Shown here: positions 32,335-64,000 of the stretch, piece by piece
Position numbering within the stretch: position 1 is the first letter of the stretch
Layout: every line of letters starts with the position of its first letter
From: an uncultured Acidobacteriota bacterium
Lineage (GTDB): Bacteria > Acidobacteriota > Thermoanaerobaculia > Multivoradales > SZUA-115
Direction of reading: 5' to 3'
DNA length: 64,000 nt
Assembly: GCA_963805975.1 (NCBI GenBank)
Contig: CAWDVR010000001.1
Span: forward strand, 1,056,001 to 1,120,000
Notes under the pieces: model-generated
Databases searched by the model: none
Told to the model about the DNA's origin: nothing
What the model saw: only the letters and a program-made list of their open reading frames with translations
Program-made: the position numbers and the translations under genes

Positions 32335-32363
32335 GAGCTCCATCGCAAGCCGATGGAAGGCTC
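32335..32363. terminator. Hairpin between convergent genes (end of the giant NRPS-PKS)
   Basis: GAGC-TCCATCG-CAAGC-CGATGGA-ag-GCTC. Confidence 0.45.

Positions 32364-64000: not shown

Follow-up and report, generated by a model that had tools for sequence, protein, structure and literature searches.

A single-chain NRPS-PKS from an uncultured Acidobacteriota bacterium, predicted to make a linear and possibly tetramate-ended Dhb-containing peptide

Peptide assembly lines that end in one polyketide module have been described in several forms. In the dol15 cluster of Dapis sp. (PMC13643306), a Val/Pro-rich NRPS peptide is extended by one terminal PKS module, and the thioesterase (TE) is proposed to generate an N-acyl tetramate's pyrrolidine-2,4-dione; this is a proposal only, and the in-vitro reconstitution of Dol15F failed. 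The peptide epoxyketones epoxomicin and eponemycin likewise derive from an NRPS followed by a terminal KS-AT-carrier-TE. Their PKS contains a C-methyltransferase and their clusters an acyl-CoA dehydrogenase. The microcolins and the jamaicamide-type pyrrolinones combine a C-terminal Ala and one ketide with Leu, Thr, Val and Pro-type residues; microcolin itself is short and N-methylated, bears a polyketide head and has a deoxy-pyrrolinone, the making of which requires both reduction and dehydration. A start with acyl-Dhb-Dhb on a single NRPS is known from haereogladin, haereoglumin and haereoplantin of Burkholderia, which have 5-6 residues and PABA and for which the listed architecture has no terminal PKS module; Dhb-Dhb lipopeptides are known with an octanoyl head (PMC9581180). 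Finally, internal C-T modules without an A domain are reported to be functional in WS9326A, the cluster of which has trans A domains (PMC7539972).

The locus presented here is located in a 64,000-nucleotide stretch, referred to as the window, of an uncultured Acidobacteriota genome (5.36 Mb, 6 contigs, 96% complete). Window position 1 is contig position 1,056,001, and the numbering is continued beyond the window along the same contig (G000:C1, offset 1,056,000). An uninterrupted ORF of at least 31.6 kb had been claimed, and positions 32,363-64,000 of the minus strand indeed form a single stop-free frame. In the genome this frame reaches position 75,040 (14,225 codons from stop to stop), and the gene, taken from the first ATG at 75,025, encodes 14,220 aa (32,363-75,025, minus strand), extending 11 kb beyond the window; the second Met, 16 codons downstream, is an alternative start. 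At the three codon positions the GC content is 0.78, 0.51 and 0.90, and 20 base shuffles gave no ORF longer than 703 aa. The frame is the longest of the genome. Its size adds little novelty, because frames of 14,804 and 13,272 aa, both with AT domains, occur in another genome of the same order (G008). The larger one (G008:C25:1,286-45,697; L126-L128) comprises 11 NRPS modules and three interspersed KS-AT-T modules, the ATs of which all read GYSLG/HAFH. The probable acidobacterial origin that had been suggested from the letters is supported by the ADOP permeases and by a patatin relative (47%) that is labelled Thermoanaerobaculia.

Pfam domains were called on 16 pieces spanning the whole protein, and the domain order was also derived from self-built HMMs. 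The single giant NRPS-PKS of the original prediction is borne out and resolves into 12 NRPS modules and one KS-AT-T-TE module, with a tally of eleven C-A-T modules, one C-T, one extra C-family (E) domain and KS-AT-T-TE. The collinear C-A-T modules, the KS-AT-carrier, the release domain and the catalytic motifs are those of a modular cis-AT NRPS-PKS. All modules lie on the minus strand. Three of them were recovered with the 5' part from the genome, outside the window: module 1, C(HHLVMDA)-A(Thr)-T (74,932-71,807), module 2, dehydrating C-A(Thr)-T (71,710-68,576), and module 3, dehydrating C-A(Val)-T (68,485-65,297). Module 4 consists of an intact LCL C domain (65,191-63,881; HHIVSDG) and a T domain (63,727-63,506) without an A domain, and occupies 63,506-64,000 of the window. 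The remainder of the in-window part (32,363-64,000, by ORF and Pfam) holds module 5, with C, Leu-type A, T(GGDSI) and E (58,889-63,403); module 6, with DCL-type C, Val-type A and T (55,694-58,729); module 7, with C, Leu-type A and T (52,499-55,600); module 8, with C, Thr-type A and T(GGDSI) (49,313-52,408); module 9, with dehydrating-type C, Val-type A and T (46,154-49,216); module 10, with C, proline-clade A and T (42,956-46,060); module 11, with C, Val-type A and T (39,626-42,865); module 12, with C, alanine-clade A and T (36,371-39,499); PKS module 13, with KS, AT and T (33,278-36,268); and the TE, with a GWSFG serine motif and a C-terminal GNH (32,381-33,208).

The specificity codes, read via a motif-anchored alignment, gave Thr, Thr, Val, none, Leu, Val, Leu, Thr, Val, an atypical code of the Pro clade, Val and an atypical code of the Ala clade for modules 1 to 12; the residue names are assignments from code tables. 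The codes from module 5 onwards (Leu(+E), Val, Leu, Thr, Val, Pro-clade, Val, Ala-clade) agree with the order derived earlier by hand, and the 'X' of that order is the A-less module 4. In a set of 477 A domains taken from 120 related proteins, the 25 nearest to A10 (DVYVITQVVK) mostly carry DVQ-type Pro codes, the nearest one being DVYITTQVVK, and the closest identity to the A10 core was 54% among the 120 matches listed. For A12 (DVFSCGLTYK) the nearest domains in the same set mostly have the alanine codes DLFN(N/C)ALTYK. The extra C-family domain of module 5 clusters with E domains and is located after a GGDSI carrier and before a DCL-type C domain, so that residue 5 is predicted to be D-Leu. 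No Ser, Lys or Orn code was found across the A domains. The product predicted from the codes and domains is (acyl?)-Dhb-Dhb-Val-(X)-D-Leu-Val-Leu-Dhb-Val-Pro*-Val-Ala-C2, a hydrophobic chain of 11-12 residues. A compound with this residue order was not found in the open-access literature, in accordance with the initial statement that no known compound was recognised. The calculated masses before acylation are 1081.65 without X4 and 1180.72 with Val for a tetramate (sum + C2H2O), and 1055.67 and 1154.74, respectively, for a methyl ketone (sum + CH4).

The three predicted Dhb residues follow from the subfamily of C2, C3 and C9, each of which comes directly after a Thr-coded module. In PDB scores they match McyA at 362, 313 and 361 bits and AmbE at 235, 205 and 203 bits, respectively, whereas the best other structures score 140, 127 and 147 bits. 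Dhb rather than Thr at position 8, as had been proposed, is thus supported by the top matches of C9. In a quick tree the three domains form one clade (SH-aLRT 98), nested in a 100-supported group with three outside domains that also come after Thr- or Ser-coded modules. Both their affinity to McyA/AmbE and their position behind a Ser or Thr module are those of C(modAA) domains, and by score and tree they share the subfamily of McyA, AmbE, AlbB (albopeptide) and AzeB. Cmod domains are reported to dehydrate the upstream carrier-bound acyl-Ser (10.64898/2026.07.17.738954). The present line differs from those systems in having three such domains within one 13-module chain, and the products differ as well.

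Module 4 is unusual in the comparison set, where A-less modules numbered two out of 457, although one such C-T module is also found in another cluster of this genome (on contig C2) and one in G008. C4 is an ordinary LCL domain joined to T4 by a short linker, and both keep their motifs. Like the NRPS of WS9326A, the present one thus has an internal A-less C-T module; unlike the WS9326A cluster (PMC7539972), it has no trans A domain within the cluster or nearby.

In the terminal module, the catalytic Cys of the KS and its two His motifs are present, as are the Ser and His motifs of the TE. The stretch of about 100 residues between AT and T matches no Pfam family, so that the module has no KR, DH or MT; N-methyltransferases are absent from all modules according to Pfam and the self-built HMMs. 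The KS-AT-T-TE directly behind the last amino-acid module is the layout of the dolastatin-15 type, and because KR, DH and MT are lacking, a tetramate tail of that type fits the PKS module better than the pyrrolinone of microcolin. The microcolin logic put forward originally was not upheld: the PKS has no KR or DH, there is no N-methyltransferase, Val11 stands between Pro* and Ala, the residue order differs, and no PKS for a microcolin-type polyketide head was seen upstream among the neighbours scanned. Peptide epoxyketones were rejected on the missing C-methyltransferase in the PKS module and the missing acyl-CoA dehydrogenase among those neighbours. The dol15 system (PMC13643306) is spread over six megasynthase genes and has N-methyltransferases, a keto-acid module and an O-methyltransferase, none of which was found here; the search for a Dol15G-like enzyme yielded no SAM O-methyltransferase family among the neighbours scanned. 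Features of the present line that set it apart from dol15 are the dehydrating type of three of its C domains, its E domain and its A-less module. The lid of its AT reads LAAH in place of the malonyl-type HAFH, so that malonyl-CoA, the extender of dolastatin-15-type tetramates, is an uncertain assignment here.

We tentatively favour, at slightly less than an even chance, that this single-chain 12-module NRPS with its terminal PKS makes a linear, likely N-acylated peptide that is likely released as a C-terminal tetramic acid. C1 would likely acylate the Thr on T1, and C2, C3 and C9 would dehydrate the upstream Thr to Dhb before condensation, by analogy with AmbE, AlbB and AzeB. The A-less module 4 would most likely be loaded with Val by the adjacent A3, or be skipped. 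The E domain would generate the D-Leu that is taken up by the DCL domain C6, both domains being present. KS and AT would then put one unreduced C2 unit on Ala12, after which ring closure by the TE would join the amide nitrogen of Ala to the thioester carbonyl, in the manner put forward for Dol15F. C-methylation is a putative role of the neighbouring radical-SAM enzyme, and the acyl chain may be attached or taken off by the patatin.

What the AT loads and how the chain leaves the TE are the steps at which other outcomes should be weighed. Loading of methylmalonyl-CoA or of hydroxymalonyl-ACP is a minority possibility; it would lead to a substituted tail, for example a 3-methyl tetramate or a hydroxymethyl ketone, and suits either release route. 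The AT motifs GYSLG and LAAH conform to the GYSxG and xAAH of the hydroxymalonyl-specific ZmaA-AT (PMC4207774), and among 122 distinct complete ATs from the fetched loci, the present one included, it is the only one that combines GYS with xAAH, where HAFH occurs in 109 and xAAH in six. GYS alone means little, since nine other ATs have it with HAFH or QAFH. Moreover, the carrier-recognition triplet is GNR, not the MCM of ZmaA, so that the MxM triplet and the FkbH supply cassette of ZmaA-type hydroxymalonyl-ACP ATs are both lacking: no FkbH was found in the 96%-complete genome, whereas the same model exceeded its cut-off in 7 of 30 relatives. As no crotonyl-CoA carboxylase (CCR) exceeded the cut-off either, supply of hydroxymalonyl or alkylmalonyl extenders was rejected, and from triplet and missing genes malonyl or methylmalonyl appears more likely as extender. 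The closest identity to the AT was 59% in relatives and 55% in named genomes. Unlikely, on the side of release, is hydrolysis of the beta-keto thioester by the TE. Beta-keto acids decarboxylate readily, and the outcome would be an alanyl methyl ketone (ethyl if methylmalonyl is used). A KS-AT-T-TE without reduction permits that route, and the TE (best PDB match 83 bits) has no feature shown to favour cyclisation; however, dol15, a characterised cluster with this terminal layout, gives a tetramate (PMC13643306), and no acyl-CoA dehydrogenase or C-methyltransferase that would lead on to an epoxyketone is present among the neighbours scanned.

Macrocyclisation is the commonest way in which a TE releases an NRPS product, and, whatever acyl donor C1 uses, a hydroxyl on the N-terminal acyl group, or an undehydrated Thr, could serve as nucleophile. 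We regard this as quite unlikely, because a C domain of the dehydrating type comes behind each of the three Thr modules, which would leave no side-chain nucleophile for a macrolactone, and because Ser, Lys and Orn codes are lacking. It is very unlikely that the line is degenerate and the predicted sequence not made, either as the loss of A4 stalls synthesis or as the repeat of modules 6 and 9 is an assembly error. The repeat copies, located at 44,737-47,938 (A9-T9 and part of C10) and 54,274-57,478 (A6-T6 and part of C7), are 93% identical across 3.2 kb and 98-99.5% across about 2.4 kb, which points to a recent duplication or gene conversion, and other NRPS clusters of the assembly have many frame breaks. 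Yet the copies differ and have distinct flanks, the 42.7-kb frame is free of stops, the motifs of C4 and T4 are intact, and A-less C-T modules recur in the C2 cluster and in G008 and are functional in WS9326A. Diverged copies (about 90%) in sequencing runs also hold a gap-free piece of 2,040 bases across module 10. As improbable as macrocyclisation is a more far-reaching alternative, a new class of membrane-active dehydro-lipopeptide tetramates. Here a radical-SAM enzyme, presumably with PoyC-type chemistry, would C-methylate Val, Pro or Dhb on line, the A-less module would be a second Val carrier, and ArsA/GET3, small protein and patatin would be an unrecognised module for the lipid head or for product storage.

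As a free amine, Dhb at the N-terminus would be an enamine and unstable, which favours acylation, and by analogy with the Dhb-Dhb lipopeptides this appears likely. No FAAL or stand-alone carrier was found within the cluster. C1 keeps H-H-x-x-x-D but is divergent, with a long branch in the tree; its top scores are to structures of the LCL type (177 bits for Txo2), ahead of those to the starter domains 7C1K (86) and CDA-C1 (76), so that a starter role of C1 is a tentative assignment.

Directly upstream of the NRPS-PKS, on the minus strand, a patatin, an 80-aa gene and ArsA (ArsA/GET3-HSP20) are located (75,041-77,651), followed by divergent genes on the plus strand for a DUF4440-like protein and a TIGR03975 radical-SAM methyltransferase (77,991-80,440) and by a tRNA-Glu (80,867-80,942). 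The GC content of this block is 55-64%, versus 73% for the NRPS. The radical-SAM protein had no PDB match at E 0.001. The 80-aa protein belongs to no family, has atlas matches under 0.9 only and, although of similar size to its counterpart in G008, gave no tblastn match with it. Six separate loci have the ArsA-small protein-patatin operon, whole or in part, next to NRPS/PKS or MbtH genes. In G008 it lies ahead of a PKS, as do ArsA and patatin in L171 (8470-15262), ArsA, MbtH, a B12 radical-SAM gene and patatin occur together in L173, patatin follows an NRPS-TE in G019, and in the metagenome locus L170 it precedes a C1-like N-terminus. On the more far-reaching reading given above, the operon could thus mark an undescribed accessory system of secondary metabolism. 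Members of the ArsA/GET3-HSP20 and/or patatin subfamily adjoin PKS, NRPS or MbtH genes in L096:1-7800, L171:8470-15262, L173, L170 and L088. Of 80 patatin loci, most of them distant (under 36% identity) and many short, only three had any C, KS or AT match (L170, L171, L189) and only two had ArsA. Relatives of ArsA (46-50%) occur in all 27 genomes of another family, with no patatin match within 1.5 kb. The puwainaphycin cluster also carries a patatin, one without an assigned role (PMC4219810). The clusters beside the patatin relatives in G008 and G019 and the giant frames of G008 and G059 were rejected as orthologues, as their module orders differ. The sole MbtH gene of the genome is located about 520 kb from the NRPS-PKS.

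With respect to module 10, the '(hydroxy)Pro/Pip' predicted originally holds as far as the Pro clade of A10 is concerned, whereas the hydroxy and Pip parts are weak. The only Pro-3-hydroxylase-family gene of the genome (8,751-9,725), 22.6 kb from the NRPS-PKS, is followed by an ornithine-cyclodeaminase-family gene, and the two genes are convergent with the ABC exporter belonging to a separate NRPS cluster, one with a FAAL-like start, an end at about 7,741 and two Pro-clade modules. The hydroxylase most likely serves that cluster, though module 10 might be supplied in trans with Pip or hydroxy-Pip. A methyl-azetidine at this position, following the vioprolide/bonnevillamide logic (PMC12930334), was rejected, since the neighbours include a radical-SAM gene but neither a methyltransferase-like nor a DUF364 cyclase. 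The separate NRPS (G000:C1:1,018,300-1,065,725, that is, window 1-9,725 and upstream; plus strand) comprises about 11 amino-acid A modules with several frame shifts, includes one E domain and a single C domain of the dehydrating type, placed after Ser, and ends unusually in C-T-C without a TE; its hydroxylase and cyclodeaminase likely supply hydroxy-pipecolate. Two more large NRPS-PKS clusters, heavily frame-broken, are located at G000:C5:179,500-290,700 and C2:205,000-239,000, the latter with an A-less C-T.

The relatives of this organism are rich in large NRPS-PKS genes, and AT matches were obtained in 37 of 61 related genomes. The 2-kb stretch of module 10 has no close copy in seven family genomes, and an orthologue of C1 was not found in 400 genomes of the class, in a weak search that scored four candidates per genome. 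Sequencing-run contigs matched positions 43,001-60,000 in four runs of three studies, at about 90-100% identity, where no piece spans the stretch and many short matches are other NRPS genes; none of the runs listed is an RNA run. Run X2 gave short pieces at 99-100% and may represent the source or a close strain, X1 gave pieces of 400-800 bases at about 92-98%, and X3 and X5 gave gap-free pieces of up to 2,040 bases at about 90%. Judged from these pieces, the cluster seems to exist in related, diverged organisms. The NRPS-PKS is real and intact and its product probably new, although every domain type in it is already known. Since the cluster is intact, contained almost entirely in one gene and directed mostly to ordinary amino acids, it lends itself well to heterologous expression or to synthesis of the predicted product, and it bears on the loading of A-less modules without a trans A domain, on tetramate formation by a TE and on the selectivity of xAAH-type ATs.

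Between the two NRPS clusters the window encodes an MMPL transporter and a TAP-like hydrolase together with two DUF4440/SnoaL-like proteins that appear to carry signal peptides (21,950-26,899), and an ADOP permease spread over two frames (27,007-29,437) with a break near 28,000 that reflects a frame shift or an assembly error. The gene at 30,476-32,320, the product of which has two Ig-like repeats of the NBR1 kind and is rich in cysteine towards its C-terminus, converges on the stop codon of the NRPS.
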